A stretch of DNA of 62,124 nt, counting the filler. It is 4 parts of 4 records of this genome, joined end to end, with 100 filler letters (N's around TTAATTAATTAA, not from the genome) between each part and the next. Parts side by side here need not be neighbours in the genome. Positions count along the whole stretch, not along the records: positions 31,286 to 54,888 come from DRR723986_9745; 3 more parts are not named here. The stretch is one strand, 5' to 3'. The notes under the pieces were generated by a model that saw only the letters and a program-made list of their open reading frames with translations, had not been told where the DNA came from and did not search any database. This document shows, piece by piece, positions 31,286 through 54,888 of this stretch; the first letter of the stretch is position 1, and each line of letters begins with the position of its first letter. Made by a program: the position numbers and the translations under genes.

Positions 31286-31287
31286 AG

Positions 31288-31353
31288 GTGCCCGGTACCC
31301 GGCTCTATCGGCGGGCGGACGTTGAGCGCTTAGCCAATGGAGGTGCCGAATGA
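31288..31353 (+). CDS. C-terminal fragment of an excisionase/MerR-like HTH protein
   Basis: Manual translation VPGTRLYRRADVERLANGGAE*; ATGA overlap with the next gene. Confidence 0.5.
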   Translation: MPGTRLYRRADVERLANGGAE

Positions 31354-31601
31354 CGCCCCGTGATCGAGCGGAACTGGCCGCCGACATCGCAGCGCAAGTC
31401 CGGGAGAGCTTGCCGATTGGTGTGCAGCTCGTCGATCGCATCGAGCTCGCCCGCCGACTGAGCTGCAGCCCGTCACTGGTAGAAAAGCTCCAGCGAGATG
31501 GGATGCCACGTGTACGGATTGGTACTCGGGTCGTGTATGAGCCGGGCGAAGTAATCGAGTGGCTGAAAAGCCGAAAGGGGACCGATGCCGCGAAAAACTA
31601 A
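31350..31601 (+). CDS. Excisionase/AlpA-like HTH protein
   Basis: RIELARRLSCSPSLVEKLQRDGMPRVRIGTRVVYEPGEVIEWL. Confidence 0.8.
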   Translation: MTPRDRAELAADIAAQVRESLPIGVQLVDRIELARRLSCSPSLVEKLQRDGMPRVRIGTRVVYEPGEVIEWLKSRKGTDAAKN

Positions 31602-31815
31602 ACGACGACAGCCGCCAAAACCACAGCCCCGACGGCCGCTGCCTAGTGATGCCGACCGACCCGTCAGCATTGAAATCGCCGCAAAGACATGTGACGTGAC
31701 GGAATACCGTCTAAGGCGGTGGATAGCGAACGGACTGGTGCCAACGATCCGAATCGGCGGTCAGCAAAAAGTGCTAATCGCAAGCTTACGCCAAGACCTC
31801 ATCAATTTACTATGA
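31585..31815 (+). CDS. Excisionase-like HTH protein
   Basis: SIEIAAKTCDVTEYRLRRWIANGLVPTIRIGG. Confidence 0.75.
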   Translation: MPRKTKRRQPPKPQPRRPLPSDADRPVSIEIAAKTCDVTEYRLRRWIANGLVPTIRIGGQQKVLIASLRQDLINLL

Positions 31816-31825: not shown

Positions 31826-32407
31826 ATGCCAAAAAAACTAACGGTGGACAGCCCACAGAGACTGCCACTGCAGTGGCCAGAGCCCGCTGATCAAGTAATC
31901 ACCGCGATCTCGGTTGAGCAGAGAGAGGCCCTCTTTGCGATCCGAGAACGCTGGTCGCTAATCGCGTTTCGCGTTGGAAAGGCGGGTGTACTGCCCTCCG
32001 AAAACTCGTTGCCGGTCGGTGCAGAGATGCCGTGGCTTGCGTGGCTTAGCACGCAGGCATTTGTGCTCGGACGACGCCAGCACTCCGTCAGTCTGCAGAT
32101 TGCTCACGACGCCAAGATTCGATTGAGGACGATTCGGCCAGCACTCCATGAAACCGAGCAGAAACTCATCCCGCTCGTAGAGGAATCGATTGAAATCCTC
32201 GAAGGTGTCGAGCGCGAGGTTGCCGCTGCCTACCAGCGATTTCGGCAGTTGGGGCGGATGCCAGCTTCACCGCAGATTGACGCTGAAATGGCCTCGCTGT
32301 CGCGACTGGGGTCGTTGCACAAGCTTGACGCGACGAGCAGATACCGGGAGATCCTGGCCCGGTACGACGAGCTAACGCAGTCTGACCTAGCTGTTATCAA
32401 CGCGTAA
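31826..32407 (+). CDS. Hypothetical protein
   Basis: 193-aa helical ORF in the operon; no motif recognised. Confidence 0.6.
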   Translation: MPKKLTVDSPQRLPLQWPEPADQVITAISVEQREALFAIRERWSLIAFRVGKAGVLPSENSLPVGAEMPWLAWLSTQAFVLGRRQHSVSLQIAHDAKIRLRTIRPALHETEQKLIPLVEESIEILEGVEREVAAAYQRFRQLGRMPASPQIDAEMASLSRLGSLHKLDATSRYREILARYDELTQSDLAVINA

Positions 32408-32515
32408 AGAAAAAGTAGCAGCCAGATGAATCGGCTCATCTGGCTGCTACGCAAAGGACGCGGCATGGCTACGCCGCCCGACCCAAGGACCACGACAAAT
32501 TAGGCACAATCGGAG

Positions 32516-33877
32516 GTGGATCTCGTGTCATTATCAAAGACTACAGCAGCGGCTGCGCATGTCACAGATTGCGCGCTACTCGATGGAAAAATTTCCGTCG
32601 TGTCGAAAGCCTTCGGACCAGCCGGACTTCAAACTGCGATGGCAGATAAACTGGCAAGGCTAAACGAGAACCTATTGTTGCGCACAATAGCAGTACCTGA
32701 GCGTCGTAAAGGTCACTGGATACCTTTCGGTCGAGGTGACTGGTATTCGCTATTCGGAGCGAACTACACGAAGGTCAAGCAAGCCGGAGTAAAGCTTGGC
32801 ATGCTCGAAACTAACGAGCGTTATTCGTCGCGGTCGACAACCTCACGTCGCGCGTTTCGCAAGTCACTACGCTTGAGTGAGGCTTATCGCACAGGCGAAT
32901 TCTCCCTCTACAAACTCGCGCGAAAACCGCGAGTCTCGTACATCGTCGACGCTGACAACCTCCAAGATGCGGGCGTCTGGCTCGCAAACCAAATGCACAG
33001 TTTCGCGCTGACTGCTGAGCCTCGCGATGCGTGGGATGCCCTCACACTTGCTCTGTTTGCGCGAGGCATGCATCGGCCATTCAGATGCGCATATTCACGA
33101 TTTCATTCCCTGATGACCGCAACGCCAAAATACCTCCGCAGAGGCCTTACCACCCGAAATAACAAAACACATATGATATACGGGAAGAAGCCGGAGAGCC
33201 CCCCCTCCCTCCTGTCTTTCTTGGGTAGTCTTAAGCTCCAAGAGGCTCCAAATTTATATCAAGGCCCGCAGCACAACGAGCTAGTCGAAATCGACGTAAA
33301 GAACTGCCAGCCGCTCATACTCGGTAAATTGGCTGGTGACAGATTCGGTGTACGCAGTTGTCCTAGTGATATAAGCGAGTGGATCGAGCTGTCTGAGAGT
33401 GGCCGAATTTATGAGGCCATCATGGCAGAACTTCACTCTGGTCGTTTTGAGGCCGTGCGCGTAGAGCGCGAGGGGAGAAGTTGGCTCGATGATCCTCTCG
33501 CCTACACCCGTGACCGGACGAAGAAAGCAGTCATTACGGCCATGTTCGCGTCAGGCTGTGTATCTGAGCGCATGCTGGTTTGGCAGGTGATTAAGGCTCG
33601 CTGGCCAAGCATCGCAACGGTCGCGTCGGCAATTAAGGGCAAACAACATGAGGCTTTAGCGCGCGAGTGCCAGAAGGTCGAATCATCTCTTGTGATCGAT
33701 GGCGTTTGCGGTCATCTCGCCGAGCATCACGCAGACCTGCCGACGCTAACTATCCACGATTGCGTCATCGTACCGCGATATGCCCAGTCACTTGTAGAAG
33801 AACTGATCCAAGATCATTTCGAACGGGCTGGGATGCGGCCGCAATTGGATGTAAGTGACTTGGCCAAGGCTGCGTAA
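32516..33877 (+). CDS. Putative replication protein with family-A DNA polymerase-like palm motifs
   Basis: Motif A-like LVEIDVKNCQP, motif B-like RDRTKKAVITAMFA and motif C-like LTIHDCVIV occur in the right order. Confidence 0.6.
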   Translation: MDLVSLSKTTAAAAHVTDCALLDGKISVVSKAFGPAGLQTAMADKLARLNENLLLRTIAVPERRKGHWIPFGRGDWYSLFGANYTKVKQAGVKLGMLETNERYSSRSTTSRRAFRKSLRLSEAYRTGEFSLYKLARKPRVSYIVDADNLQDAGVWLANQMHSFALTAEPRDAWDALTLALFARGMHRPFRCAYSRFHSLMTATPKYLRRGLTTRNNKTHMIYGKKPESPPSLLSFLGSLKLQEAPNLYQGPQHNELVEIDVKNCQPLILGKLAGDRFGVRSCPSDISEWIELSESGRIYEAIMAELHSGRFEAVRVEREGRSWLDDPLAYTRDRTKKAVITAMFASGCVSERMLVWQVIKARWPSIATVASAIKGKQHEALARECQKVESSLVIDGVCGHLAEHHADLPTLTIHDCVIVPRYAQSLVEELIQDHFERAGMRPQLDVSDLAKAA

Positions 33878-34136
33878 AGACCGAATCGATTACGACGGCT
33901 ATATGTGAGCCTGCCTTCGTTTGATCCAGCAAAACGGAAGCCGTTTCCGTTTTGCCAGTAGCTTTCATGCTCGAACTGGCCCCCAAAAGTAAGACTTACC
34001 TTCATAACGCCGAGCCTGCCTTTAGCAAAAGCGGACACTGTGTCCGTTTTCACATCTCGTTGAGTTCTTGAGACGCAACGAATAGCGACGTTTTTGGTCT
34101 CCGACTCCGGACGCTAACTTCCGGAGTACAAAAATT

Positions 34137-35660
34137 GTGGATTCAACAGACCTTTTTCAAACGATATGCGAGCTGCCGCCGCTCGAACAACTCAAGCTCC
34201 TGCGAGCTCTCCATCGCGAGATTTGCGACTCGATTCCGGACACTGACATTCTGTTGGACGTGCCGGTCGACTCGCTGAAGCCTTCACCGGAAAACGACGC
34301 AATCTATGGTGCTGTCGGCGCAGCAGATGAAGCGATGGAGGCTCTGATTGAGTCCATCGCACACCGCGGCCTAGCCGAAGCCATCATTGTTTCGTCTGAT
34401 GGCTACATAGTGTCTGGGCACCGGCGTTACTATGCGGTCCAGCAGCTGGGCTGGGACACCGTTACGGTCCGGTTGAGCGATCTGCGGAGGTCCGAATGCC
34501 TTGACCAGTGGCCTGCAATCCTCGCGGAATACAACCCCCAGCGCATAAAGAAACCGGCCACGCTTTTGCGCGAGGCCTTGCTCCGGGGGGCAGACAATCC
34601 GGCCAGCTTGTTGAAAGAGCATACAGCGGCCTCAATGTCGGCGGCTTCGAATGGCGATTATCGGTCAGTGCTAGGCCACAAGCACTTAACGCCAATCTCA
34701 AAGAAGAAGCAGGAATTTCTTCGCGCAGCTCAACAAGTAGTCTTCGATCTGAAAGTGTATTGGCCGATCACCGTCAGAGCGGTCCACTACCGCCTTCTAA
34801 ATGCGCCGCCGCAAATTTCGACGCCAAAGAAACCGACGAAACCGGCAAGCCACTACACCTATCGAAACGATCTAAGGTCTTACCAAGCGCTCACAGCGCT
34901 GCTCCGGGACGCCCGATACATGCCAGCCACCGCTGTGACTAGCGATCGGTACCCCGATTGGCAGACTGAGATTCCTGTGGAATCGATCGATGACCCGACG
35001 AGACCGCAGTGGACGCACGAGGGCTGGTTTAGCGTCTCCGAATTCGTCACACAGGCGTTCGACGGGTTTCTACGCGGGTACCACCGCCACCTCCAAGAGT
35101 CACAACCACGCCACATCGAGCTGCTCGGTGAGAAGAACACTCTTGCGCCCATGCTGCGCCCGCTCGCGCAAGAGTACTGCGTGCCGCTTACTCTAGGTCG
35201 CGGCTACGGCACCACGCCCATGTGGCGGGATATGGCCGCGCGTTTCGAGCGTTCTGGTGCGTCGAAAATGACGCTAATCGTCGCCAGCGACTTTGATCCA
35301 GAGGGGCTAGATCTAGCAGACGACGCAATCCGCTCGTTACGCGACCTATGGGGCTTGGACGTTGAGTACCAGCGGGTGGGCGTTACTTTAAAGCAAATCG
35401 AAGAACTGGGGCTGAAGGCCAACTGTAACCCCGCAAAAGTGACTTCCTCGCGTTTCAAGACGTTTGTCTCATCGACGGGCGGCGCAGATACGTGGGAACT
35501 GGAAGCTCTTCCGCCGGAGTACCTGGTCAGCGCGACAGAAAGTGCCATTCGAGCGAACTTGGATCTTTCGATTTTCGCAGCGTCAAAACGACAACAGAAC
35601 GCAGATGTAGAGGTTCTGGCCGAAACACGCAGACAGCTAATTTCGGCCCTGGACCTTTAG
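34137..35660 (+). CDS. ParB/Srx N-terminal domain fused to a Spo11/TopoVI-A-like TOPRIM domain
   Basis: IVSGHRR (ParB), TVRAVHYRL, GEKN, SDFDPEG and WELEALPP. Confidence 0.65.
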   Translation: MDSTDLFQTICELPPLEQLKLLRALHREICDSIPDTDILLDVPVDSLKPSPENDAIYGAVGAADEAMEALIESIAHRGLAEAIIVSSDGYIVSGHRRYYAVQQLGWDTVTVRLSDLRRSECLDQWPAILAEYNPQRIKKPATLLREALLRGADNPASLLKEHTAASMSAASNGDYRSVLGHKHLTPISKKKQEFLRAAQQVVFDLKVYWPITVRAVHYRLLNAPPQISTPKKPTKPASHYTYRNDLRSYQALTALLRDARYMPATAVTSDRYPDWQTEIPVESIDDPTRPQWTHEGWFSVSEFVTQAFDGFLRGYHRHLQESQPRHIELLGEKNTLAPMLRPLAQEYCVPLTLGRGYGTTPMWRDMAARFERSGASKMTLIVASDFDPEGLDLADDAIRSLRDLWGLDVEYQRVGVTLKQIEELGLKANCNPAKVTSSRFKTFVSSTGGADTWELEALPPEYLVSATESAIRANLDLSIFAASKRQQNADVEVLAETRRQLISALDL

Positions 35661-35721: not shown

Positions 35722-36234
35722 ATGACCGCATCAAGAACGCTACGCACGGCTTCGCAAGCAGAGAGCGAAGCGAGAATTGACCGAATCGAGGCGACGATCC
35801 AGCTCGCCGAAGAAGAACGCAAATGGATGGCCCACGGGCGCAAGTCCGCAAGACTAGGTGACCGTGCGGGCATTTTGAGATGCTTGTTTCAAACCGCCTA
35901 TGCGAAAAAAGCGTATGCGAAGAAAATCGGTGATGACGCGCTCAGAAAAAGCATGGCGAACGACATGGCGGCCGTGGTTGAAATCGGCGAACGCATGGGC
36001 CTACGCCCGGAGTATGGCTCCGGATTCAGAGACCAAAAATTCTCGAAGAAACGCAAGGAGCTGCTGGAGCAGCTCAACATAGCGCAACGCGAGATCAACG
36101 ATCTGCTTCTGGAGTACGAGGGTGACGAACTGCTAACGCGTCATGCAGAGAGAATCAACACTAAGCTAGCGCAACACTGCCGTTCGCTGGGACTCGTCAA
36201 ACAGGACGGCCTCTGGCGCGACCCACACGCGTAG
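35722..36234 (+). CDS. Hypothetical protein
   Basis: GGAG RBS; 170-aa charged helical ORF. Confidence 0.6.
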   Translation: MTASRTLRTASQAESEARIDRIEATIQLAEEERKWMAHGRKSARLGDRAGILRCLFQTAYAKKAYAKKIGDDALRKSMANDMAAVVEIGERMGLRPEYGSGFRDQKFSKKRKELLEQLNIAQREINDLLLEYEGDELLTRHAERINTKLAQHCRSLGLVKQDGLWRDPHA

Positions 36235-36278
36235 GTGGCGGTTGTCTCACGTTCATCTTCTAGCCCCGGAGTCCATCC

Positions 36279-36950
36279 ATGTCGATTGTTTCGCGCGCTG
36301 ACCTATCAGTGACCTTGAGCCAGCACCAGTCGAGGGAGGCATTAGCTCATGTCATTGACGCTGCGGCCCTTCTCGAAACTACAGACATAGTCGCAGCAGC
36401 TAAGCTTCTGAACGAGGTCCTGCGGCACTGTTCCGCGCAAGAATGCTCGCCCGAATGTGCGCAAGAGCTTCGGCGAGTGTTCATTCGCCTCCACGCCGCC
36501 CACCAGTATTTGGACGGCAGCGAGTACGTCGACGGCGCTGTCGTGAGACATATGTCAACGATGCTCGACAAACGGATCGATGCCAGTTTCGAAATCGTTG
36601 GCATCGCACCGGACGAGTCGTTGCAACTCTTGCGGGAGCATTGGCTCCGCGACTCCCTGATGGCGTTGTCTGCGTGCCTGCAGTTCCCGGAGCTGTTTAT
36701 GGATGAACGTACAGAAATTCTCTTCGAGCAGATTCAGACGGTCATTGACGCTCCAGCAGAGGTGCGGCGTGCGCTCGAAGATCACGCAGAGTGGTTTGAG
36801 GCGGCCGCAGACCCTAGCGTCAGCGTCGGACCAGACCTCGTGCAGTGGCTGCGGAGGGCGCGGCTGGTAACGCGCTTAGTGCCGCCTGACACCGCTGGAC
36901 TACCCAGTCTTAACGCGGCCATAAGCCGAACCGAGGCAGTGGTCTACTAG
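36279..36950 (+). CDS. Hypothetical protein
   Basis: GGAG RBS; 223-aa helical ORF. Confidence 0.6.
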   Translation: MSIVSRADLSVTLSQHQSREALAHVIDAAALLETTDIVAAAKLLNEVLRHCSAQECSPECAQELRRVFIRLHAAHQYLDGSEYVDGAVVRHMSTMLDKRIDASFEIVGIAPDESLQLLREHWLRDSLMALSACLQFPELFMDERTEILFEQIQTVIDAPAEVRRALEDHAEWFEAAADPSVSVGPDLVQWLRRARLVTRLVPPDTAGLPSLNAAISRTEAVVY

Positions 36951-37133
36951 CCTTTGAATTTCGAGCCAGTTTTGGCACTCCTCCATCACAAAACGATCTC
37001 GACTATACTGCTAGCTTTCACATGGCATTGCGGCCGTTCTTCCGTTTTGGCTATGAAACCTAGTTGGGAGGGGTAGAATCAGTCCCTCTGACTTCAGATA
37101 TGGACGCCGCCTTCCCCGGTCAGTGCAGAAATT

Positions 37134-37829
37134 ATGCATAGTGAATTGCTGCAAAACAACGCAGATGACATTGTTGCCAGCCGCGCAATTCCAAGGAATG
37201 TATTGGAAGACTTTCTCCACGTTGCGGGCATTGAACCTGGAGCCTGCCGCCGCCTAATGGCTGGATTGGAGAAACTAAACGGTATCCCCACACCTGAGCA
37301 ACTTGGACTTCTTGCCTTAGATGTTATCGGCATCGAAAACGTTGCGCAGAGTTTGACGATGGTCCTGTGCACTATCCGCCCAGATGAACTCCATAAATAC
37401 ATTGAGTCGCTCCACGAATGGGTGGAATCGGACAAAAGACGAAGTGAAGTTTTTAGTGAGGCAGTCTTTTCTCAGCTGGAGGAGAACCTATCCATTCTGT
37501 TTGATCGGGAGAACACACCGGTCCACTTGCTGCAGAAGGCGATGAGGCTTCCACAAGTCACAGGCAAGCAGTTCTTGAATGCGAAAATCGTATGTGATCT
37601 TCGACCTGTGTTCGACCAACCAGGTAGTGAAGTAGCAGGATTCGTGATCGTGAATACGCTACGCTTAAACTTCCAGTCCGAACAGTCCGAGGAGTCTTCA
37701 ATTGAAGTTATTGTAAGCGACTCAGCCATTTCGCAATTGCGTGCTGATTTGCAGCGTGCCGAGCAGAAGATTCAGTCGTTGAGACGACTTCGTAACTCTT
37801 TTGGAGTCTCTCCGGAGGAAGACGAATGA
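37134..37829 (+). CDS. Hypothetical protein with a COMM-domain-like C-terminus
   Basis: Helical N-terminus, then the beta-beta-beta-alpha pattern AKIVCDLRPVF...VIVNTLRLNF...SIEVIVSDSAISQLRADLQRAEQKI. Confidence 0.5.
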   Translation: MHSELLQNNADDIVASRAIPRNVLEDFLHVAGIEPGACRRLMAGLEKLNGIPTPEQLGLLALDVIGIENVAQSLTMVLCTIRPDELHKYIESLHEWVESDKRRSEVFSEAVFSQLEENLSILFDRENTPVHLLQKAMRLPQVTGKQFLNAKIVCDLRPVFDQPGSEVAGFVIVNTLRLNFQSEQSEESSIEVIVSDSAISQLRADLQRAEQKIQSLRRLRNSFGVSPEEDE

Positions 37830-38629
37830 GTACTGCAATTAGCCCATTCGAACCCAACGCTCTAACCGCAAGCAAAACTAGTTGGTGGAAGCTGCCGTCC
37901 CCTCCCGCAACGGAAATCGCCACCGAGACTGCAGCCCCGTGGTTTGTGAGCCCCCTGGCAGCGAAGTCCATTGGGCATCCCAGTATCATTAGTCTTCCAC
38001 GCGCCGCATGGAAGGCAGATTGGCAGGAAGATCCGGACTTCTTACTTGAACGCCTCCACTCACCGGAGCTATCGGATCGTCGGAAGGCAGCGGTACTGTG
38101 TGAGATGGTGGGCTTTTCTGATGATCAAGTTAGGTTGCTGCTTGACGGTCTCCGCGATTTCATTTGTGGGCAACGGTTCTCGCGGGATGAAAGCACTTTG
38201 ACCGCAGTTTCTGCAAGCATCAGGAAATTTGCGATGTACATGCGCAAGAACGACCAGACAACTTTTGCGGACTGGTTCTATCCGTCCGGAATTCAAGCAT
38301 TGCCAAATTCAATAGAACTGGAATTGGCCAAGTCGCTTTACGCAAGATTTGCGTATGCCGAAAGTAAATTGGAATTTTGTGAAGAGTTGGTCAAGGCTGT
38401 TGCACAGTTGGCAACTGACTATATGTCGAGTCGTAGATTGATACTTCAGGAGAATTACGCAGCAATCGCTCTGAATGCCGCTGTTTCTACCGTACTGCTC
38501 TCCAGTGGTTCAGATCAACTCTTTTCAGATGCAGTTCGCAGTCAGCTAGAAGCCCTAAATCTTGACTGGTTCACCGAAATGTTCGAGCTTCGACTTGCAG
38601 AGGCAAGTGAAGCAATCTCGGATGCCTGA
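37826..38629 (+). CDS. Hypothetical alpha-helical (HEAT-like) protein
   Basis: ATGA-coupled to the upstream gene; amphipathic helices after a Pro-rich N-terminus. Confidence 0.55.
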   Translation: MSTAISPFEPNALTASKTSWWKLPSPPATEIATETAAPWFVSPLAAKSIGHPSIISLPRAAWKADWQEDPDFLLERLHSPELSDRRKAAVLCEMVGFSDDQVRLLLDGLRDFICGQRFSRDESTLTAVSASIRKFAMYMRKNDQTTFADWFYPSGIQALPNSIELELAKSLYARFAYAESKLEFCEELVKAVAQLATDYMSSRRLILQENYAAIALNAAVSTVLLSSGSDQLFSDAVRSQLEALNLDWFTEMFELRLAEASEAISDA

Positions 38630-38631
38630 AT

Positions 38632-39324
38632 ATGCCCGCATCAAAGCTGTCCGGAGTGCCAACTTCAGTCTCTCCTTTTGACGTGCTCGTTACGGAAGGC
38701 AATGAACCTGGTTTGTTGGCTCATGCTATGCTCTACGTGGGGCAAGACCGCACTGACGTGACCGCTGCTACGAAACTTGACACGTTCCACATGGGGCCCC
38801 CCCTTGAGACACATATTTCTGCGGCATATGCCTGCGGAAGAGCTGATTTAACGGCTGAACAGCAGTTGAAGATAAAGACATTCCTCGATGAACGAATGTC
38901 AGAAAAAGCAGCGTTGGATTCGCGCAGGAAGATTTTGGGGAAGAAGCGAAGAGACGCCGAAGAATATTGGTTGTTGCCAGATGCATTGCCTCCGTCGAGG
39001 GAGGTTTCGATATGGCGTTTTAGCTGTGTTGGCCTGGTTAAGAAAGCGTATCTTCAAGCTGGGATCAAGCTACTTGCTACTAACCTGCCAAAGCGTTCAC
39101 TCGCTGAATTACAAAGGTTCTATCCTGGTCGCTCGCAGCAACGAATCCTCGCGAGCCCTGAGCTGCGGAGCACGTTCCTCGGACTGACCGGGAACGGCCC
39201 ATGGGCGGTAAGTCTGGTAGGCTACGTCATCCATTCTTTAGCTCGGGAAGCCGCTTTGATCAACCCAGAACGCGGCAACGCTATCCCTTACAAACCGCGG
39301 TCTCAAGACTCACACTTTCCTTGA
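38632..39324 (+). CDS. Permuted papain-like (NlpC/P60, YiiX-type) enzyme
   Basis: N-terminal HAMLYVG precedes C-terminal FSCVGLVKKAYLQAGI, the His-before-Cys order of permuted NlpC/P60 proteins. Confidence 0.6.
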   Translation: MPASKLSGVPTSVSPFDVLVTEGNEPGLLAHAMLYVGQDRTDVTAATKLDTFHMGPPLETHISAAYACGRADLTAEQQLKIKTFLDERMSEKAALDSRRKILGKKRRDAEEYWLLPDALPPSREVSIWRFSCVGLVKKAYLQAGIKLLATNLPKRSLAELQRFYPGRSQQRILASPELRSTFLGLTGNGPWAVSLVGYVIHSLAREAALINPERGNAIPYKPRSQDSHFP

Positions 39325-45813: not shown

Positions 45814-45816
45814 CGA

Positions 45817-46443: not shown

Positions 46444-47710
46444 CCACATGCGAAACAGGAGAGCCCAGGCCGGGCGACGACGCGGCGCGTTGTACATCAC
46501 GGTGCTTGGCGCATCACTTGTTGTTACGCTGCTGTCACTGGCGGCTATCCATGGAGTGCGCATCAACCTAAATAGAGCACTCTCAAAACCTGATCGTGTA
46601 ACGGCTTCCCTTATCGCCGATGCGGGAATCGAGCATGCTCTTGCAACAATAGACGCCGATCCTAATTGGAGGAGCACGCTGAATTCTGGGATTAGCTATC
46701 CTCCCACTCCGCTCTCGATCAGCGGAGGAACAGTGACGTGGAAGATTGTCGACGCAGATGGCGTGCTAAACGACAACTCCGCGGACTGTGCCGTGTTGCG
46801 AGCTACGGCAAATCTAGGTGGTGTAACCCACGTCGTCGAAGCGACGCTTCAACCGACAGATTCTGGAATCACAGCCTTGGAAAGTGCCTTCCATTGTGCA
46901 ACCAGTATCTCGCTCGGATTTAGCGTTAACTTCGAAACAAACACGTTCATTGGTTCGAATGGGAACATATCAGCGAGTGGATTGTTCACCAGTATCGAAG
47001 GAGATGCACAGGCGAGCGGTGCAATCTCCGGTAGCGTCTCCGGCAAAGCAACCATGGGGGTACCTGCTCGTCAGATGCCGGACGAAACCGTCTTCGACTA
47101 CTACACGCATATGGGAACTCCGATTGACATCGCGATGATTTCCACGAACCTTGAGAATGTCGTGCTTAGTCCAAGTAGCAACCCTTTCGGGGAAACGAAC
47201 GCGGCTGGGATCTATGTTGTTGATTGTCAGGGCGCAGAGATTAGAGTTCGCAATATCCGTTTACTTGGTACTCTCGTTTTACTTAATCCTGCCAGCAGCT
47301 CTCGAATCGAAGAGAGCGTTCTTCTGGAACCGGCAGTTTCTAATTTCCCATCTCTTCTCGTCGAAGGCTCTATACAGATTGAATTCGATTCGAATTCATC
47401 CCTCGACGAAAACACAGCGAGCTTCAATCCGCCCGGAACTCCGTTCGATAATGAACAAGATACCGATACCAGCGACTCCTTTCCGAGCATGATCCGAGGG
47501 CTTGTTTACGTTTCGGGGCAGATGAACTTCGTGGCGGATGCTAGAGATTCCGATTTTGAAGGATGTGTGATATGCGGCTCCACCCAAGGTAACTCGGACA
47601 GCAGCTTCACGTGGTACTCTCTGTTCAAGCATCATCCGCCGCCGGGCTTCGGCGCTGGCTCGCAGATGGAAGTGATCCCAGGTTCCTGGCGGCGCATTCC
47701 TACGCAATAG
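46427..47710 (+). CDS. Minor (pseudo)pilin, GspK/PilX-like
   Basis: RRRG|ALYITVL lacks Glu5, as PilX/GspK proteins do; ADAGIEHAL. Start is 46427 or 46448. Confidence 0.75.
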   Translation: MLKTSSHMRNRRAQAGRRRGALYITVLGASLVVTLLSLAAIHGVRINLNRALSKPDRVTASLIADAGIEHALATIDADPNWRSTLNSGISYPPTPLSISGGTVTWKIVDADGVLNDNSADCAVLRATANLGGVTHVVEATLQPTDSGITALESAFHCATSISLGFSVNFETNTFIGSNGNISASGLFTSIEGDAQASGAISGSVSGKATMGVPARQMPDETVFDYYTHMGTPIDIAMISTNLENVVLSPSSNPFGETNAAGIYVVDCQGAEIRVRNIRLLGTLVLLNPASSSRIEESVLLEPAVSNFPSLLVEGSIQIEFDSNSSLDENTASFNPPGTPFDNEQDTDTSDSFPSMIRGLVYVSGQMNFVADARDSDFEGCVICGSTQGNSDSSFTWYSLFKHHPPPGFGAGSQMEVIPGSWRRIPTQ

Positions 47711-48149: not shown

Positions 48150-49088
48150 ATGAAACAAATACTTGCGTTCTTTCTAGTGTTTTCAGTACTCGCGCAACCA
48201 GCTCAAGCTTGGTCGGAACGCGGGCACCACATCATTGCTGTTCTGGCTTTCGAGCTTCTTAGCCCACAGGAACAAGCACGGCTGGTGCAGGCCCTGAGCG
48301 AGCATCCAGACTTTGCCAGAATCAGCGAGTATGGCGACTCCGACATCCAGATTGTTGGCCGTGCAGCGTACTGGCCTGATATTGCAAGGAGCTCAGCAAA
48401 ATGGAATCGACCATCGTGGCACTACCAGTTGGGAGCTACCGAGATTAGAGGGGACGTCCCGAAGGTACCAGACTTTCCAATGAGTCTTCCTTTGACCGCT
48501 GATCTATCGACTCAGGAGCTCCACATTCAGCAAGCAGTTCAACTCTGTGTTGGAGTCGTCCAGTCTCAAGAAGCACCAGCACCGGACAAAGCACTCGCGT
48601 TGAGTTGGCTTCTGCACCTAATCGCGGATGGGCATCAACCCTGTCATGCTGGAAGCTTCTACGCAGCGTACGTTTTTCCCAACGGCGATCGCGGTGCAAA
48701 CAGCATTCCAGTAAAGCAGGGCCGGAACATGCACGCTCTTTGGGATGGTCTGCTTGGCCGGTCATATGACAAACGTAGGATTGAGAGAGAAGTCGAAGAC
48801 TTGCTCACGAGAGCTAGTCGCCTCGAATCGAGCGGCCTCGAACTCGGTGGTACAGCGGAGATCATATCGGGGCAATGGCTAGAAGAGAGCAGAACGGCCG
48901 CTAGAGCGGTTGTATACACCGAGCAGATTAGACGGCAAATTGACGTGGCGTCGAAAGCCAAAACCGATGTTTCGCCAATTGATCTACCTGAAGCTTATTT
49001 GAAGGAGGCTGGCGAAGTAGCCCGGATTCGGGCAACCATCGCAGGTGTTAGGCTAGCGCGAGTCTTGTCCGATTGTCTAGCTAAGTAG
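48150..49088 (+). CDS. Secreted S1/P1 nuclease
   Basis: Signal peptide ending AQA|W, then WSERGH, WPD, WHY, HLIADGHQPCH and HALWD. Confidence 0.92.
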   Translation: MKQILAFFLVFSVLAQPAQAWSERGHHIIAVLAFELLSPQEQARLVQALSEHPDFARISEYGDSDIQIVGRAAYWPDIARSSAKWNRPSWHYQLGATEIRGDVPKVPDFPMSLPLTADLSTQELHIQQAVQLCVGVVQSQEAPAPDKALALSWLLHLIADGHQPCHAGSFYAAYVFPNGDRGANSIPVKQGRNMHALWDGLLGRSYDKRRIEREVEDLLTRASRLESSGLELGGTAEIISGQWLEESRTAARAVVYTEQIRRQIDVASKAKTDVSPIDLPEAYLKEAGEVARIRATIAGVRLARVLSDCLAK

Positions 49089-49111
49089 CTACAAGCGCTG
49101 GTGGAGTTGAA

Positions 49112-50629
49112 ATGTCGGAAGACAGTGAATCAGAACTGCGGAAAGAGCTTGACCGCACCATATCTCTTGGACGCACACCGCAACTAGTGATATTGGGAAC
49201 GGCCGCATATTACTTGATTGCAATTTCTTCGGTCGCTTGGCCACTGATTACGGAAGCGGCACGAAGACGCCAGGCCGAAACTGATTTGAAGGTTCTCAGA
49301 GCCGCAGCTGAACTGGAGCTTGCCGCCTACCGCCTTCAAAAATCTTCCGCGGACAATTTGCAAAGCCTTGGTGCGCCGAGCTCAATCGACATGGCATACG
49401 GTGGACCACCTGCAAACTCCTACTACGGTTCCTGGTTGGCGGCGATCACTGGTACATCGGTACCCTACGGTTACGGATCGGAAACATTGATCAGGGTTGA
49501 ACCGGCGACCAGTGAGGAGCTCAAGAACAGCCAGCATCTATTAGATTTCGCGTATGCAGCTAGCTTTTCGTGCACTCCTACTGACCCGCGAATTTATGTC
49601 CCCGATCCTACGAGTGGTGTGTTTCGCGGACCGGACATTGAAACGCGTTTCTTGCCTCACACGCTTAGACGTGTTTGGTTCTATTCGCAGTCAAAGGACT
49701 TCATCGGGAAACTCGAACAAGAGCTCGCTGACACGATTGCTGCTGCTCGTGGCGACTTAGAAGAACGCGCAGCGAAAGAACCTGAGCTCGAAAATCCACA
49801 GGAGTCTCCAGCGTTTGGCAATGGATTCGGAGGGTTTGGATCGGGTGATGGCGACCCGTCAGTTGGTGGCGGTGGTGGATTCTTCCGTGTGCCCGACGAC
49901 AAACTCCCGACCGATTTTGTTAACCTTGCGCAAGGAGGGGGCGGAATGGCCGGAGCTACTTGGGAAAATGCCTCCGCTGCCCAGAAGCTTTATTGGCTCG
50001 ATAAAGCCCCCGAAGCAGTGCAACTGACCGACATACATGGCCAAATCGTAGCTGGCCTCGACGCGGATAAGCTAGAGCTAGTTGCAGCCAATCTCGGGTC
50101 AATCGTACGGTACGCGAGCACAGACCAGCCTCCGGAGTCCGTACAACTCCATACCGTCATTGCTAAGCTGGAGAAGGAGGTCGACTCGGTACCGGACTTC
50201 ATGTTGCCTGTGATCTCTTCATCGGTACCGGCGGATGTTGGCCTGATAATTGCCGGGCCTCTATTGCTTGTTCTCTTTCACTACTGGTTGCTCTGCTTCT
50301 TAAAGATTCGCCGCCTCGAAACTGAGTTAGTTCAGAAAGTGACGCAGCAGAGCCTTCCGACATGGAGCGGCAGGCTTTTCACGCAGCATGACTCGGGATC
50401 CATAAACGCAAAGCTTAACTGGTGGTTTGGGATCTTGATGCTGTTCGTCTTCCCGATAGCTATCCCTTTCGTTCTCGGTATTCTGATGACCTACGCATTC
50501 TGGGTTGGAGGGGTGCTAAACCTCGCGTGCGCCTGCCTTATGGTCGTTGACCTGGTTGTTACACATCGGGAATGCAAACGGCTGAACAGCGGAAGTGATT
50601 TGCTCTGCATCGGAGGAAATGCTTCGTAG
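49112..50629 (+). CDS. Hypothetical membrane protein
   Basis: One N-terminal and about three C-terminal TM segments; Gly-rich GGGGGFFRVPD motif. Confidence 0.65.
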   Translation: MSEDSESELRKELDRTISLGRTPQLVILGTAAYYLIAISSVAWPLITEAARRRQAETDLKVLRAAAELELAAYRLQKSSADNLQSLGAPSSIDMAYGGPPANSYYGSWLAAITGTSVPYGYGSETLIRVEPATSEELKNSQHLLDFAYAASFSCTPTDPRIYVPDPTSGVFRGPDIETRFLPHTLRRVWFYSQSKDFIGKLEQELADTIAAARGDLEERAAKEPELENPQESPAFGNGFGGFGSGDGDPSVGGGGGFFRVPDDKLPTDFVNLAQGGGGMAGATWENASAAQKLYWLDKAPEAVQLTDIHGQIVAGLDADKLELVAANLGSIVRYASTDQPPESVQLHTVIAKLEKEVDSVPDFMLPVISSSVPADVGLIIAGPLLLVLFHYWLLCFLKIRRLETELVQKVTQQSLPTWSGRLFTQHDSGSINAKLNWWFGILMLFVFPIAIPFVLGILMTYAFWVGGVLNLACACLMVVDLVVTHRECKRLNSGSDLLCIGGNAS

Positions 50630-50734
50630 GACCTGAGAGCCACTTTGCAAAGCTTGATTTGCTAGACTCCGGTTAGCCTCACTACATTGGCTAAGTCTCG
50701 GGTTGCAGTAGCACGCTTAAAATGAAGAGATGAT

Positions 50735-53371
50735 ATGAGCCACTACCGACCGACATTTGAAGCCCTGGAAGACCGTAGACTGCTTTCGGCGTCTCTTGAG
50801 TTTGTAAGCGGTTCTGGTGTAGGGCATGGAAGCGGAAGCGGACGTCAGTGTGCGCCCTTGTCAGACGGTTGGGAAAATCAAAATGAATCAGACTCTCAAC
50901 GAAAGTCCTTCGAGTATGAATCACACCCGCTGGCTGGTGGTGCCGCTGGATTTGGCTTCACCGGCGACTTCGGTTTGGCGGCGAGTAGCGTCACAAAATG
51001 GGGAGCTATCGCTTACGCAACAGTAACCCAAAACTTCGAAGGTGAAGTCAATTGCCCCATGCCTGGTTCCTTCGTCTTTTACAGGGAAGGACTATCCGCG
51101 CGTTCAAGTCTTGATGCGTCGATCAACCTTCGATATTACAACCCCGGCAACGAGGCGTTCGTAGACGCGGTCGTCAACGAACGCCAACGTGGGGTGGGGA
51201 CCGGTAGTGTTGTGACGACTCTTAATGGGCAAAGAGCACCGGTTCGGCTTCTAGTTAGAAGCGGCGATATTTTAACGATCCGTTTTCAACTCTCTGCACA
51301 GCAATCAACCTCGGCTCCGATCGAAGGGCCCTATTATGACACAGTTGCGGAATCGCAAGTAGAACTCTTCGTGCGTGAACTTGTGCAAGCCGCTTGGCTG
51401 GTTCATGGATACAAGCAGCCCTTCGAAGATTTTGACGACTTTATTCGTCCTTGGGTCAACGAATACAGTAGTTTCCTGGCCAACGCTTTGGAATTGAGCG
51501 GCCCGCGCGCTCAGGTAAACGTATTCGAGTGGCAGTCTAGTGAAGGATGGAATCTCGCTGCTGGACTCCTCGGGGCCAAGATCGCTGTCTTGGCTAGCCC
51601 GATTCCATCGAAAGTACCGCTAATACGCGCCTTGGACTCGCTAATGATCAACCAGTTGCAGCGAGCCAAAGATGTAAGTGTATTCGAGACTGATCGGCTG
51701 ATTCGGGAAATACTGATTACGAATTTGTATCAGGGGGTCGCTGGTGTCTCGTTGATTGGCCACAGCCGTGGTGGCGAGCTCATAGCGAGGGCGAATACCA
51801 TTTTGCGTAGAGGCTTGCTTCCTGAGATCCCGATTTCGAGCGTTCTTTTGGATGCCCATGGCACTGACTGGCCCGGCCTAGGTGGAATTCTAGGTTCAGA
51901 TCGTCCATTCCCAGCGGGGACTGCCGCGGATACCAACGTCCTTGTCGACGACGGGTTGGTGGGCTTTCTTGGTGACTTTACCCGACAGGCTATAAACTTG
52001 CTCGGAGGTCTACTTCTGCCTCCAGACGCGATCCCAGACATTGAGACATTCCTAAGCGCTGGAAATTGGAAAGCTCCGGAGAGAAGCAAGCGAGGATACA
52101 TCGATGACCGTTCATTGTTAGGTTTGGACTCGGATCACTTTAATGTTCACGAGCTCTTCTTTTTCCAGAGTGATGAGAAAATAGCGAGCTATTTCCAACC
52201 GCCGTTGAATGCATCCGGGGAAGAGAATAGTACACCAACAGCCCCCTTCGCACTGTCGCGCTTAAGTGGTGGCAGTTTCGAAGAATTTGAGAATTCAGCG
52301 CGGCAATTCGAAGCTTTCAACGACGATGAACTGCCGTTGTTTGCCAGAGAGCTCGTGAGTGCCTTGTCGAACGCTGAAGCTTGGTTCCGTCTCTCTTGGG
52401 ATGTCGACGGGGACGTTTGGCTTGACGATCGAGAGCGACTTATCGCAATTGGTCCAGAGGGCGTGCTTCGGCAGTCGATCGCGTTTCCGAATCCAGAGAT
52501 GGTATTCACGTTGACACACTCGCCAGACTCCTTGACTGACAATTCTTCACTAACGATATGGCTTGACGAAGATCCGATTGCGGTTCTAGGCACCGAAGAA
52601 TTGCAGCAGCCAACGATAGAGTTTTCCTTTGGTGAATCTCACGGAAAGGGCAGCTTGAAGCTTGCATATTCCGGTCCCGAGGGAAGTGCTTTCCAGCTTA
52701 GGAGTATTGAGGCGGAAGAGCAGTTCGCGGCATTCTCAGGCGAGGTGGTTCCCTCTGCGCAAGGAATAGTTGCCCAGGTTCGCGTCGTCGGGGATGAATT
52801 GCCAAGCGGAGAGGTTTCCTTTTTCACTGAGGCAAACGGTGTTGCAGGATTGCAACTAGGCGAGTCTGGTGATCGTGCATTGAGCAGCCAATACGCCGAT
52901 AAAGTGTGGACGCTAGAAGATCCAGCTTTGGCTGTAGGGGACTTTGTATATGCATCGTACGAGCATTCAGGTCAAAGGGTTGCGGAAGATGTTTACCTCG
53001 TAAGCCAGCTCACTAAGAATGTTCAGCAACCGCTCGACGTTTCAATGGATGGCTTCGTTACGCCGATTGATGCGCTAATTCAAATCAATATGCTCAACGG
53101 CGACGTTCCCTATGACGAAGAGCTCTTCTATCGCGCTGACGTCGATGCTGATGGCGTACTCAGCCCCTCGGATGTGCTCCGGGTCGTGAATTACCTTAAT
53201 GCGGACAGTTCTTCTGCCGGAGAGTCGGACGAACTATTTGAACCATTTTCAACTGATCATGACGACGATACTGCTTTCTATATTGAGGCGGAACGTCTGG
53301 CTCACTGCCTGGCTTTGGACTTCGCAAATGAGATTGACGATCTGCGCCGTAGGTCAAGTTTCGGTTGCTAA
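50735..53371 (+). CDS. Planctomycete extracellular protein with an alpha/beta-hydrolase motif and a dockerin-like C-terminus
   Basis: N-terminal FEALEDRRLLS; VHGY and GHSRGG; C-terminal DVSMDGFVTPIDAL and DVDADGVLSPSDVL. Confidence 0.8.
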   Translation: MSHYRPTFEALEDRRLLSASLEFVSGSGVGHGSGSGRQCAPLSDGWENQNESDSQRKSFEYESHPLAGGAAGFGFTGDFGLAASSVTKWGAIAYATVTQNFEGEVNCPMPGSFVFYREGLSARSSLDASINLRYYNPGNEAFVDAVVNERQRGVGTGSVVTTLNGQRAPVRLLVRSGDILTIRFQLSAQQSTSAPIEGPYYDTVAESQVELFVRELVQAAWLVHGYKQPFEDFDDFIRPWVNEYSSFLANALELSGPRAQVNVFEWQSSEGWNLAAGLLGAKIAVLASPIPSKVPLIRALDSLMINQLQRAKDVSVFETDRLIREILITNLYQGVAGVSLIGHSRGGELIARANTILRRGLLPEIPISSVLLDAHGTDWPGLGGILGSDRPFPAGTAADTNVLVDDGLVGFLGDFTRQAINLLGGLLLPPDAIPDIETFLSAGNWKAPERSKRGYIDDRSLLGLDSDHFNVHELFFFQSDEKIASYFQPPLNASGEENSTPTAPFALSRLSGGSFEEFENSARQFEAFNDDELPLFARELVSALSNAEAWFRLSWDVDGDVWLDDRERLIAIGPEGVLRQSIAFPNPEMVFTLTHSPDSLTDNSSLTIWLDEDPIAVLGTEELQQPTIEFSFGESHGKGSLKLAYSGPEGSAFQLRSIEAEEQFAAFSGEVVPSAQGIVAQVRVVGDELPSGEVSFFTEANGVAGLQLGESGDRALSSQYADKVWTLEDPALAVGDFVYASYEHSGQRVAEDVYLVSQLTKNVQQPLDVSMDGFVTPIDALIQINMLNGDVPYDEELFYRADVDADGVLSPSDVLRVVNYLNADSSSAGESDELFEPFSTDHDDDTAFYIEAERLAHCLALDFANEIDDLRRRSSFGC

Positions 53372-53610
53372 CACCGATGCATGACTCGTCTCGGGATGTC
53401 TCGAATTCTTGCCCGAAATGAGAACTTAGCTAGAGATTGCACTGCGTCGCACGAACACGACACAAACGACTCTCTTCTCAGTCGTTCTGTGTAGTGGCGT
53501 TCGACGACGCCGAAAACGCGGCGGGCTAGGTCATGCAAACCGAAAGCTGGTTACCCACCAGTTGCCCATGCCGCGCCATTTTGTGGGTAAACCAATGAGG
53601 GTGATTGGGC

Positions 53611-54873
53611 ATGGCATCTTTAAGCCAGCGCGTTCGGGGCAGTTCGAAAACTTGGGAGATCCGCCTCAGGATTGGCGATCGCCAGAAGACGATCGGCCTT
53701 GGTTCAGTCTCCAAACGCAATGCAGAAGGCGTTCTACGTCACGTCCAAGAGCTTCTGGTAGCGTCGAAGTTAGGCAATAGACCAGAGACCGCTACGGTCG
53801 AATGGCTGAAGACCCTTGCAGCGGATTCAAAGTTGCGAAACCGGCTTGTGGAACTTGGGCTGACACATGCCGGAGTGGTTGTAAAAATCGACGAAGAGCA
53901 TCGTAAGCTTAAGCCGTTTCTAGATGCCACGATTGCGGGAATGAACGGCAATTCACGCACAATTAGCAACTACCAGCAAACAGCGAATTGGCTTCTAAAG
54001 TATTTTGCAGATGACACTGCTTTAACCAGCCTGACGCCTTCAGATATGGAGCGATGGGGCAACTTTCTCAAGTCAAAGAAGCTGGCCTACAGCAACCGCC
54101 GGAAGCTTGTTCAACGCGCAAGAAAGTTCTTTGAGCTAGCGGTTGAAGCAAGGCTTCTTGATGTATCACCTGCCGGTAAGTTGCGGCTGGAGACCAAGCC
54201 ACGGCACGTCAGGAAAAAGCATTTTGTAGACGCTGAGACCTCAACCAAGATCCTTAAGGGGCTTGAGGACGACAATTGGCGTCTAGTATTCGCGTTGCTT
54301 CGATACGGCGGCTTTCGTCGCTGTGAAGTGGATGCGATCCGATGGGAGCATGTCGACTTCAACCGCATGGCGCTCGATATCCATTCCCCAAAGACCGGCT
54401 TCCGCAACTGCCCCATTTTCCCGGAGCTGCTTCCGTATTTGGAAGCGGTGCGAGCTGCCGAAGGGCGTTTGGTGCGGTGGAGCGGCGACGTCGATAGCCT
54501 GACGCCACTGCTTCGCAAGCGGATAATCAGCATTATCGGTAAGGAGCGTATGTGGCCCCAAACGTGCATCATGCTGCGTTCGACGAGGCGGACTGAGCTG
54601 GAAGACAACTTTGCAGGGCACGTACTAGACGATTGGTTGGGGCACTCCTCAAGTGTCGCTGATGAGCATTACCTGCAGGTAACCGACGAACACTGGTCAA
54701 GGGCCATCGCGCCGCACAACGATTCGCGTAACATCCCTGCACGTACACAGGCATACAGAGACACATTAAGAGATCCAGAAACGCAAAAACCCCTGCAAAA
54801 CAGGGGTTTCCGCGAACTTAATGGTGTTGAAAAGTACCCCCGCAAGGACTCGAACCTTGGACCCGCTGATTAA
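53611..54873 (+). CDS. int: Tyrosine recombinase / integrase
   Basis: GFRRCEV (R), PKT (K), LRSTR, WLGHS and EHY (catalytic Y). Start placed at MASL. Confidence 0.92.
   Translation: MASLSQRVRGSSKTWEIRLRIGDRQKTIGLGSVSKRNAEGVLRHVQELLVASKLGNRPETATVEWLKTLAADSKLRNRLVELGLTHAGVVVKIDEEHRKLKPFLDATIAGMNGNSRTISNYQQTANWLLKYFADDTALTSLTPSDMERWGNFLKSKKLAYSNRRKLVQRARKFFELAVEARLLDVSPAGKLRLETKPRHVRKKHFVDAETSTKILKGLEDDNWRLVFALLRYGGFRRCEVDAIRWEHVDFNRMALDIHSPKTGFRNCPIFPELLPYLEAVRAAEGRLVRWSGDVDSLTPLLRKRIISIIGKERMWPQTCIMLRSTRRTELEDNFAGHVLDDWLGHSSSVADEHYLQVTDEHWSRAIAPHNDSRNIPARTQAYRDTLRDPETQKPLQNRGFRELNGVEKYPRKDSNLGPAD
54785..54809 (-). terminator. Intrinsic terminator downstream of the tRNA, inside the int CDS on the opposite strand
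   Basis: AAACCCCTG-N5-CAGGGGTTT stem followed by a T run on the minus strand. Confidence 0.7.
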
Positions 54874-54888
54874 GAGTCAGCTGCTCTA
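54835..54888 (-). tRNA. tRNA-Lys(CTT), 3' two-thirds (5' end cut by the contig end)
   Basis: Reverse complement TAGAGCAGCTGACTCTTAATCAGCGGGTCCAAGGTTCGAGTCCTTGCGGGGGTA shows the anticodon arm CTGA-CTCTTAA-TCAG and the T-arm GGTTCGAGTCC. Confidence 0.9.

Follow-up and report, generated by a model that had tools for sequence, protein, structure and literature searches.

The third of the four contigs joined end to end in the window analysed here (the whole stretch of DNA, 62,124 nucleotides in length) is read, with moderate confidence, as most of an integrative island whose insertion site is the 3′ end of a tRNA-Lys(CUU) gene. It belongs to a family of polymerase-bearing tRNA islands in which a terminase-carrying subclade may be satellite-like. 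The contig occupies positions 31286–54888 of the window exactly (23,603 base pairs, bp). Three linkers of the form N44-TTAATTAATTAA-N44 occur at 18282–18381, 31186–31285 and 54889–54988, and because the contigs were joined artificially by them the neighbouring stretches of the window are not genomic context for the island. The host is a planctomycete and probably belongs to the Pirellulaceae or to a group near them. The contig carries 23 open reading frames (ORFs), 22 on the plus strand and one on the minus strand, which together cover 90% of its bases. An earlier note on this DNA had described this nearly one-stranded array as a candidate new family of planctomycete phage satellites or integrative elements, and the gene order that it listed is largely real, apart from a third helix–turn–helix (HTH) gene and the tRNA, which is truncated. 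The recurrent parts of the family are a tRNA-overlapping integrase, a small family-A-like polymerase and, often, a fusion of ParB to a Mini-A-like protein (ParB–Mini-A); the rest is variable cargo. The features that carry this assignment are as follows (aa, amino acids; nt, nucleotides).

32415–32450, no strand: perfect hairpin with 15-nt arms and a 6-nt loop, from a palindrome scan, between a 193-aa ORF and the polymerase gene
32516–33877, plus strand: exonuclease-less family-A-like DNA polymerase, 453 aa, from predicted fold and invariant residues
33907–34050, no strand: duplicated unit (an 11-mer direct repeat and then a palindrome, twice, ∼100 nt apart), which may be an origin or a site of protein binding
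34137–35660, plus strand: ParB-N domain with a topoisomerase VI-A (Topo VI-A)/Spo11-type (Mini-A-like) winged-helix and Toprim core, 507 aa, from family matches and predicted fold
39406–39804, plus strand: candidate small terminase subunit, 132 aa, overlapping the start of the next gene by 26 nt, from position and co-occurrence with that gene
39779–41467, plus strand: large terminase subunit (TerL), 562 aa; phrog_38 (E 2.6e-74), Terminase_6C, TIGR01630
53519–53587, plus strand: int-alpA-like RNA motif; Rfam 25.0 bits, E 0.24, below the gathering score of 35.8
53605–54873, plus strand: tyrosine integrase, 422 aa; Phage_int_SAM_5, phrog_1 (E 3e-27)
54835–54888, minus strand: 3′ 54 nt of tRNA-Lys(CUU), the tRNA-proximal attachment junction; RF00005 39.1 bits (gathering score 29), model positions 19–71

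The right-hand end of the contig is formed by the integrase and the tRNA, as had been proposed, with the last 39 nt of the integrase gene overlapping the tRNA-Lys gene on the opposite strand. Only the 3′ part of the tRNA is present; its anticodon loop reads CUU in the Rfam alignment, which identifies it as tRNA-Lys. ARAGORN found no tRNA in the contig, since the contig end cuts the gene at its 5′ side. The int-alpA-like motif lies directly 5′ of the integrase gene both here and in the only other TerL-bearing island of the family, locus L001 of a Pirellulaceae metagenome-assembled genome (MAG). The L001 copy (L001:11960–12024, plus strand; 29.4 bits, E 0.049) also scores below 35.8, and the two-sequence consensus fold contains 14 pairs, seven of them compensatory between the two copies.

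The gene that had been called polymerase-like encodes a protein with a predicted family-A fold. Its sequence has no match in Pfam, NCBIfam or the PDB sequences, and none of 60 sampled members of its family matches any Pfam family at E 0.01, DNA_pol_A included. The AlphaFold2 model, made from a 60-sequence alignment, has a predicted local distance difference test score (pLDDT) of 86.3 and shows an N-terminal domain of ∼146 aa (residues 1–146) followed by thumb, palm and fingers, with no exonuclease domain. Residues 147–453 superimpose on the polymerase domain of Bst Pol I in VIA-align with a Z score of 14.2 and a root-mean-square deviation (r.m.s.d.) of 3.4 Å over 243 aligned residues. Among the matches listed, all 50 rows are family-A polymerases (Z 12–14, ∼240 residues), and the best Foldseek matches of the model are likewise all family-A DNA polymerases. 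Asp260, Lys336 and Asp415 are invariant in the family alignment and Arg332, Gln265, Pro266 and His414 nearly so; we take the first three to occupy the catalytic places of motifs A, B and C. The enzyme thus shares the thumb–palm–fingers fold, the invariant acidic residues and the lysine of the family-A DNA polymerases (Pol I, T7 DNA polymerase and Pol θ), but differs from them in its size of 453 aa, the lack of a 3′–5′ exonuclease domain, the distinct ∼146-aa N-terminal domain and the lack of a DNA_pol_A match.

The polymerase family is large. A word-based search gave four relatives only; an exhaustive profile search returned 7709 cluster representatives with a cut-off of E 0.001, and 1339 with one of 1e-30. 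Distant relatives, with 25–29% identity over the palm, are found on ten IMG/VR contigs (L280–L289, 15–385 kb), and others fall in virus-dominated clusters of the protein atlas; with distant relatives on viral contigs, the wider family is common to phages and integrative islands. Some of the IMG/VR contigs, as seen in a scan with a six-sequence alignment, are of jumbo-phage size.

The next gene, read previously as ParB–TOPRIM, encodes a ParB-N domain fused to a Mini-A-like core that is probably competent for DNA cleavage, as judged from its model and conserved residues. Pfam recognises only the ParB_N part, and the best PHROGs annotation is 'DNA topoisomerase' (phrog_6247, E 8e-31). A structural search of the AlphaFold2 model (pLDDT 80.6) against representatives aligned residues 39–134 with the N domains of KorB/ParB (Z 11.9, 86 aligned), residues 188–474 with Topo VI-A (1d3y_B, Z 11.0, r.m.s.d. 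4.3, 223 aligned; 2zbk_A, Z 9.8, 228 aligned) and residues 188–473 with Spo11 (8uru_A, Z 8.4, 204 aligned); Foldseek agrees with both the ParB and the Topo VI-A matches. Invariant in 36 sequences are Arg214, Tyr218, Glu332, Asp385, Asp387, Gly390, Trp453, Glu454 and Glu456, which form an Arg/Tyr pair four residues apart, the motif Asp385-x-Asp387-x-x-Gly390 and a WELEAL box beginning at Trp453. The assignment follows from the agreement of these residues with the features given for virus-borne Mini-A by Takahashi et al. (PMC7671362, in the portion available), namely an arginine before the catalytic tyrosine, a glutamate plus DxDxxG, and a C-terminal xWELDAL box.

Mini-A proteins have the same winged-helix 5Y-CAP and Toprim core, likewise lack a B subunit and are also carried by mobile elements (PMC7671362, same portion); in the contig, no Bergerat-fold ATPase family was matched by Pfam among the 23 ORFs. 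The present protein differs in the wording of its box (WELEAL against xWELDAL), in its fusion to ParB-N in a chain of 507 aa, where Mini-A stands alone at ∼300 residues, and in its setting, planctomycete integrase–polymerase islands as opposed to the phage genomes of that paper. 'ParB' has no occurrence in the available text of PMC7671362, and no ParB–Mini-A fusion was found described there. Homologues of the fusion number 378 as scored, with 45–54% identity over the full length, and among the matches listed all sources are planctomycete, those named (homologues P0274–P0393) being Crateriforma, Roseiconus, Blastopirellula, Fuerstiella and Phycisphaera. A profile search of viral contigs found no relative of the fusion with the patterns used.

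Hairpins had also been listed at this place, and they correspond to the paired palindromes of the duplicated unit between the polymerase and ParB–Mini-A genes. As single-stranded DNA the gap 33877–34137 folds with a z score of −4.2, equalled by none of 200 shuffles. Locus L263 has a similar palindrome pair close to its polymerase gene, with a GGACAC/GTGTCC core and a spacing of 97 nt. Strong hairpins just 5′ of the polymerase gene, comparable in place to that at 32415–32450, are also seen at L001:6211–6238 and L267:4558–4593; the loops of these two both contain ACGACTCC, and the loop at 32415–32450 differs.

Syntenic relatives, whose absence had been named in advance as telling against a new family, were found in planctomycetes. 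The closest is L001, which keeps the order of the contig (HTH, polymerase, small ORF, TerL, integrase) and has a homologue of its minus-strand ORF as well; the two islands are 66% identical in TerL, ∼33% in the polymerase and 27.5% in the integrase. In the contig from which L001 comes, the 3′ end of a tRNA-Met gene has perfect copies of 16 and 17 nt at distances of 10.9 and 28.6 kb, which mark a tandem array. In the distal element (17.6 kb) the integrase overlaps the middle copy of the attachment site (att) and is followed by TerL, the small ORF, the polymerase and the HTH gene; a further ∼8 kb beyond the HTH gene encode a sigma-70 region-4 protein and another tyrosine integrase, besides a 912-aa ORF and several small ones. 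These ∼8 kb showed no head or tail gene, and the 912-aa ORF has no match in Pfam, PHROGs or phage records. The proximal element (G001:C18:1–12113; L241; L001:13424–21608) is bounded by att copies, measures 10.9 kb and encodes an integrase, an Xis-like HTH protein, a 674-aa tape-measure protein, a DnaB helicase, a replication initiator and a head-decoration protein.

Of 401 genomes sampled from the order to which L001 belongs, 25 contain the polymerase, as found with its profile. In a set of 22 clustered loci (20 from 17 genomes, the contig and L001), the polymerase adjoins the integrase family of the contig in seven, where a single small conserved ORF usually separates the two, and the ParB–Mini-A fusion in six; TerL, the small ORF and the HTH gene accompany it in two only, the contig and L001. 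The integrase end overlaps a tRNA gene on the opposite strand in L245, L249, L258 and L259 (tRNA-Glu, -Met, -Glu and -Val, respectively), by 39 nt in two of them, and three further polymerase loci have other integrase-sized ORFs abutting tRNAs. One member is bounded on both sides: L264 (610–13699) shows perfect 18-nt repeats of a tRNA-Met 3′ end 13.1 kb apart (E 3.7e-5), which enclose an integrase, the polymerase, relatives of the M and S subunits of type I restriction–modification (R-M) systems (tblastn, phage records) and a 1036-aa ORF, and beyond the repeat comes another integrase, which is partial. Eight polymerase loci as first taken had no exact repeat of at least 12 nt; with longer flanks, one of five did (L264). 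The earlier interpretation is partly supported: it holds for integration at a tRNA, a PolA-like replicase, a TerL of its own, the lack of detected structural genes and the existence of syntenic relatives. What recurs, however, is a family marked by the integrase and the polymerase, ParB–Mini-A being present or not, and by changing cargo.

The terS–terL pair of the earlier note stands in its larger half. TerL is identified by three collections, as given above, and the 132-aa partner is a candidate by its position and co-occurrence. Across 14 relatives the TerL alignment has 56 invariant columns, including Asp162, Asp321, Glu385, Glu387, Asp458 and Asp461, and Lys67 and Ser68 are nearly invariant; the protein appears to be intact. 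Searches of PDB sequences with TerL gave nothing useful. Its best homologues are 72% (P0001, Logan), 66% (the Pirellulaceae MAG) and 57% (an Aureliella MAG) identical. A scan of genome contigs with the TerL sequence alone returned no relative; a scan with a TerL profile did find relatives, and 240 TerL-anchored loci were assembled from genomes, viral contigs and metagenomes. Homologues of the 132-aa ORF stand directly before TerL in L001, L004 and L167, the small ORF and TerL being what the last two share with the contig; in the protein atlas the ORF falls in viral hypothetical clusters only. A Logan contig of 10,940 bp that carries a 47%-identical ParB fusion (P0355) together with the 72%-identical TerL (P0001) may be a further relative. 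When 101 ORFs near the genes of four less closely related planctomycete TerLs were compared with PHROGs, ParB-like, terminase and integrase families recurred among the best 25 of 73 matched families; a lone weak match to a portal or capsid may lie among the others.

The C-terminal tail of TerL (41236–41467, residues ∼486–562) has a character of its own: Cys490, Cys495, Cys506, Cys507, Cys510, His527 and Cys531 are invariant in 14 sequences, and the tail looks like a zinc-binding extension. We know of no such extension in other terminases.

The contig was screened for structural genes by comparing all 23 ORFs with Pfam and 20 with PHROGs (all but the pseudopilin genes at 44176 and 45817 and the S1/P1 nuclease gene). 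None of them matched a family of portal, capsid, protease, tail, lysis or conjugation proteins, in agreement with what had been remarked before, and with neither collection did the contig show pseudogene-like remnants of structural genes. PADLOC and NCBIfam gave no match for the ORFs of unassigned function. The remaining features of the contig are listed below.

31286–31349, no strand: left contig end, bordering the linker at 31186–31285 and 64 nt ahead of the first gene; not the end of the element
31350–31601, plus strand: Xis/AlpA-type HTH protein, 83 aa; HTH_17 (E 0.0087, below the Pfam cut-off), phrog_57, phrog_597 and phrog_66 (1e-7 to 2.5e-5); homologue at L001:3803–4123
31585–31815, plus strand: possible small MerR-like HTH protein, 76 aa; MerR (E 0.0022, below the Pfam cut-off), phrog_66 (E 0.0046)
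31826–32407, plus strand: 193-aa ORF; no match in Pfam, PHROGs, PADLOC or NCBIfam
35722–36950, plus strand: two ORFs of 170 and 223 aa; no match in the same four collections
37134–39324, plus strand: tightly packed cassette of three genes (231, 267 and 230 aa), G+C fraction 0.505, conserved in other genomes
41554–42642, plus strand: GNAT-type acetyltransferase, 362 aa; Acetyltransf_6 (E 5.5e-30)
42784–43467, plus strand: small serine recombinase of the resolvase/invertase type, 227 aa; Resolvase (E 2.2e-43), phrog_95, phrog_125
43492–43818, minus strand: 108-aa ORF, the sole minus-strand gene; homologue at L001:8283–8762 (E 4.7e-8), within the core of the L001 island
44176–47710, plus strand: pseudopilin-like operon (187, 352, 208 and 472 aa); GspH and N_methyl (44176, 45817), prepilin-like N termini in the translations
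48150–49088, plus strand: S1/P1 nuclease, 312 aa; S1-P1_nuclease (E 1.7e-30)
between the S1/P1 nuclease and dockerin genes (block 48150–53371), plus strand: 505-aa ORF with hydrophobic stretches, secreted or surface cargo
50735–53371, plus strand: dockerin-domain protein, 878 aa; Dockerin_1 (E 1.7e-8)

Three HTH genes had been proposed at the left of the contig. Two are suggested by the HTH_17, MerR and PHROGs matches, and the third, the ORF at 31826–32407, is not supported, since it matches nothing in the four collections. The left end of the element is missing from the contig, as had been noted, and because the L001 island runs ∼8 kb past its HTH gene the contig probably lacks several kb on this side.

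The three-gene cassette, the acetyltransferase, the serine recombinase, the pseudopilins, the secreted nuclease and the dockerin protein are cargo, in line with the surface and secreted cargo and the recombinase recognised previously. The cassette is a real unit: homologues of its middle gene occur in 12 of the 401 genomes, and of six cassette loci L274, L277 and L278 keep all three genes in order, whereas L275, L276 and L279 have two of them, in differing contexts. Several of these loci adjoin ORFs of 1200–1300, ∼915 and 438 aa, a neighbourhood suggestive of a defence island. In the third cassette protein His31 and Cys132 are invariant, the cysteine in an FSCxG context; this may resemble the permuted NlpC/P60-type enzymes, and a PDB profile search with the protein gave no match. 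No convincing inverted repeats of an invertible segment flank the serine recombinase. The dockerin protein is matched in five of the 401 genomes, never over its full length and in three cases over the dockerin part only; the best match covers residues 222–833 at 32% identity.

Two observations concern the rest of the window. The contigs have G+C fractions of 0.588 (1–18281), 0.676 (18382–31185), 0.536 (31286–54888) and 0.521 (54989–62124), and the second, at 0.676 against 0.52–0.59 elsewhere, may come from another organism as a binning impurity. The long ORF at 29121–31181 (minus strand) of this GC-rich neighbour is, by eye only, GMP synthase-like in its C-terminal two thirds; the Arg/Pro-rich stretch in front of this part, also by eye, is probably non-coding.

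Taken together, these findings suggest how an island of this kind could work. The integrase and the Xis-like HTH proteins would excise the island as a circle. ParB–Mini-A would bind the paired palindromes beside its own gene and cut through the conserved tyrosine to leave a 3′-OH, which the polymerase would extend, so that the island could copy itself. In the terminase-bearing members the small ORF and TerL would, most likely, load island DNA into the empty heads of a helper phage, either infecting or resident. In favour of a satellite are the intact-looking TerL and its upstream partner, kept in two diverged islands, the size of 17–24 kb or more, and the fact that family matching detected no head or tail gene in the contig or the L001 island. 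We infer that satellites are at most a rare subclade of the family. A more far-reaching proposal is possible but doubtful: that the islands form an undescribed planctomycete class, a self-replicating family-A counterpart of pipolins and casposons in which ParB–Mini-A nicks a palindromic origin and the minimal polymerase copies the excised circle, and whose terminase-only subclade would be a new kind of satellite, supplying its own packaging motor to the empty capsids of a helper.

Several points weigh against this interpretation. With its left end missing, the boundary and full gene content of the contig's island are open to structural genes lying off the contig, and no copy of at least 14 nt of the last 108 nt was found elsewhere in the window to serve as the second att site. 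(A 13-mer of the tRNA end in the GC-rich contig was rejected; it does not extend and was taken as chance.) A small or divergent structural protein may be hidden among the six ORFs of 170–267 aa (31826–32407 and five in 35722–39324). The 132-aa ORF matches no small-subunit terminase family in Pfam, PHROGs or NCBIfam; the terminase module is confined to two islands, and L001 alone of the 240 TerL loci shares at least three genes with the contig. Gene order differs too, ParB–Mini-A being upstream of the polymerase in other members and the reverse in the contig. The head-decoration and tape-measure genes of the element beside the L001 island imply that phage fragments are common at such sites, which fits decay. 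The helper phage, the excised circle and a particle-borne copy of the island are all postulated. To our knowledge, family-A polymerases do not start replication from a topoisomerase-type nick, and the replication model is accordingly speculative.

It is unlikely that the contig is instead a decayed prophage, in which TerS–TerL and the HTH genes would be relics of a tailed phage and the polymerase a phage replication gene. Such decay is made conceivable by TerL relatives of 42–44% identity that lie in or near true prophage genes: in L008 the ORF that directly follows TerL, of 1299 aa, includes a portal domain, and the genome of L003 has a portal gene 17 kb and a capsid gene 48 kb from TerL. The distant polymerase relatives on IMG/VR contigs and in virus-dominated atlas clusters, and the isolated head-decoration and tape-measure genes next to the L001 island, point the same way. 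Against decay, the compact order HTH–polymerase–small ORF–TerL–integrase is preserved in two elements with TerL at only 66% identity and all its motif columns intact. The integrase–polymerase backbone moreover recurs without any phage structural gene, in L264 with type I R-M genes, and no structural pseudogene fragments were seen in the contig itself.

An equally improbable alternative keeps the island but makes the terminase pair part of its cargo, serving for instance packaging interference (defence) or the processing of the island's own replication products, so that nothing would be transduced. Other family members do carry defence cargo (type I R-M), the contig also has the conserved cassette that is found elsewhere beside very large ORFs, no phage is known to act as helper, and the whole 8.4-Mb genome of L001 has no match to the portal or HK97-type capsid families (PF04860, PF05133, PF05065). 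Against this, PADLOC gave no match among the ten ORFs run (TerL not among them), a full ATPase-plus-nuclease TerL with an upstream partner is what DNA packaging needs, and in the portion of the literature available no defence system built on a full TerL was found.

That the contig is composite, its integrase–tRNA end and secreted cargo belonging to one element and the polymerase–terminase core to another, or to an element with trapped host DNA, is very improbable. Relatives do form tandem arrays at one tRNA (the L001 contig; the partial second integrase of L264), the integrase lies 18 kb from the polymerase as against at most ∼1 kb in other members, and the serine recombinase stands at the border of core and cargo. 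The arrays of relatives, however, keep perfect 16–18-nt att copies, and since no repeat of the tRNA end of at least 14 nt occurs inside the contig we take core and cargo to be one element rather than a tandem array. The G+C fractions of core (0.55), cargo (0.525) and integrase (0.533) are similar, and with its few partial matches the dockerin protein does not count among the conserved chromosomal genes of the order. Least probable of all is a complete temperate phage with its structural genes beyond the left end of the contig: the contig does begin 64 nt before its first gene and the L001 element does extend ∼8 kb beyond the HTH homologue, but no head or tail gene was seen in that extension, no portal or HK97-type capsid family is matched in the L001 genome, and a terminase separated from its portal by cargo, integrase and att would, from general knowledge, be an unusual phage map.

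The tRNA-island reading can be placed among known systems. The earlier note had proposed the logic of PICI (phage-inducible chromosomal island) and P4-type satellites, and this part did not hold, as the primase-replicase and capsid-morphogenesis parts of PICIs were not detected and pipolin-like islands are closer. Because the integrase and polymerase recur and TerS–TerL is rare, the islands resemble pipolins more than PICI or P4. P4-like satellites are defined by the Sid/Psu/Delta capsid-size genes and the alpha primase-helicase, and no Pfam or PHROG match of either kind occurs in the contig; nor were the portal, major capsid, tail and lysis genes that stand beside the terminase in a tailed prophage matched.

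Pipolins are described, in the portions of PMC11551731 and PMC7385651 available, as integrative elements with a primer-independent family-B polymerase and flanking sequences that act as reservoirs of defence genes. Like them, the present islands are integrative and carry their own DNA polymerase (same sources), and they have a tyrosine integrase, tRNA sites, direct repeats and variable cargo that includes type I R-M; the flanking repeats are seen in relatives (L264 and the L001 contig), the contig itself showing the tRNA-proximal junction only. They differ from pipolins in a family-A rather than family-B fold, in the frequent ParB–Mini-A partner and in the terminase of two members. The element of the contig resembles PICIs in its terminal integrase, in packaging genes that come after a replication module, in size (10–25 kb) and in having few or no structural genes (PMC10085698, in part). 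The AlpA/MerR-type regulators of PICIs (same source) have candidate counterparts in the two HTH proteins, at E 0.0087 and 0.0022 below the Pfam cut-offs and with phrog_66 at 2.5e-5, but no primase-replicase family is matched among the 23 ORFs. Capsid-forming PICIs (cf-PICIs) have terL in common with the contig and carry capsid, protease, portal and head–tail connector genes besides (PMC10085698; 10.1101/2022.09.08.507074; both in part); the TerL of the contig comes without capsid, adaptor or connector matches. The Streptomyces satellites MulchRoom and MiniFlayer have both terminase subunits, portal, major capsid, scaffold and adaptor and lack key replication genes (PMC10690885, in part), which is the reverse of the contig, with its replication genes and no head-gene matches. 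As the terL satellites of these sources also carry capsid and portal, a satellite with terS and terL only would be a new variant. In the literature searched, which yielded pipolin papers and unrelated ones, we found no description of integrative islands with a family-A polymerase, though one may exist in print.

The mobile elements of Planctomycetota have been little described. If the family is real, it would add a third type of polymerase to those borne by integrative elements, orphan Mini-A proteins would gain a testable role in starting replication, and the pair of a tRNA-overlapping integrase and a small PolA-like gene would serve as a marker for defence and cargo islands of planctomycetes. 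As the polymerase family is large and has no Pfam model, a single characterised member would annotate many proteins. A satellite that uses terS and terL without a capsid gene would, if true, represent a way of hijacking that is found in none of the four families in the SatelliteFinder models (PMC10085698, in part).

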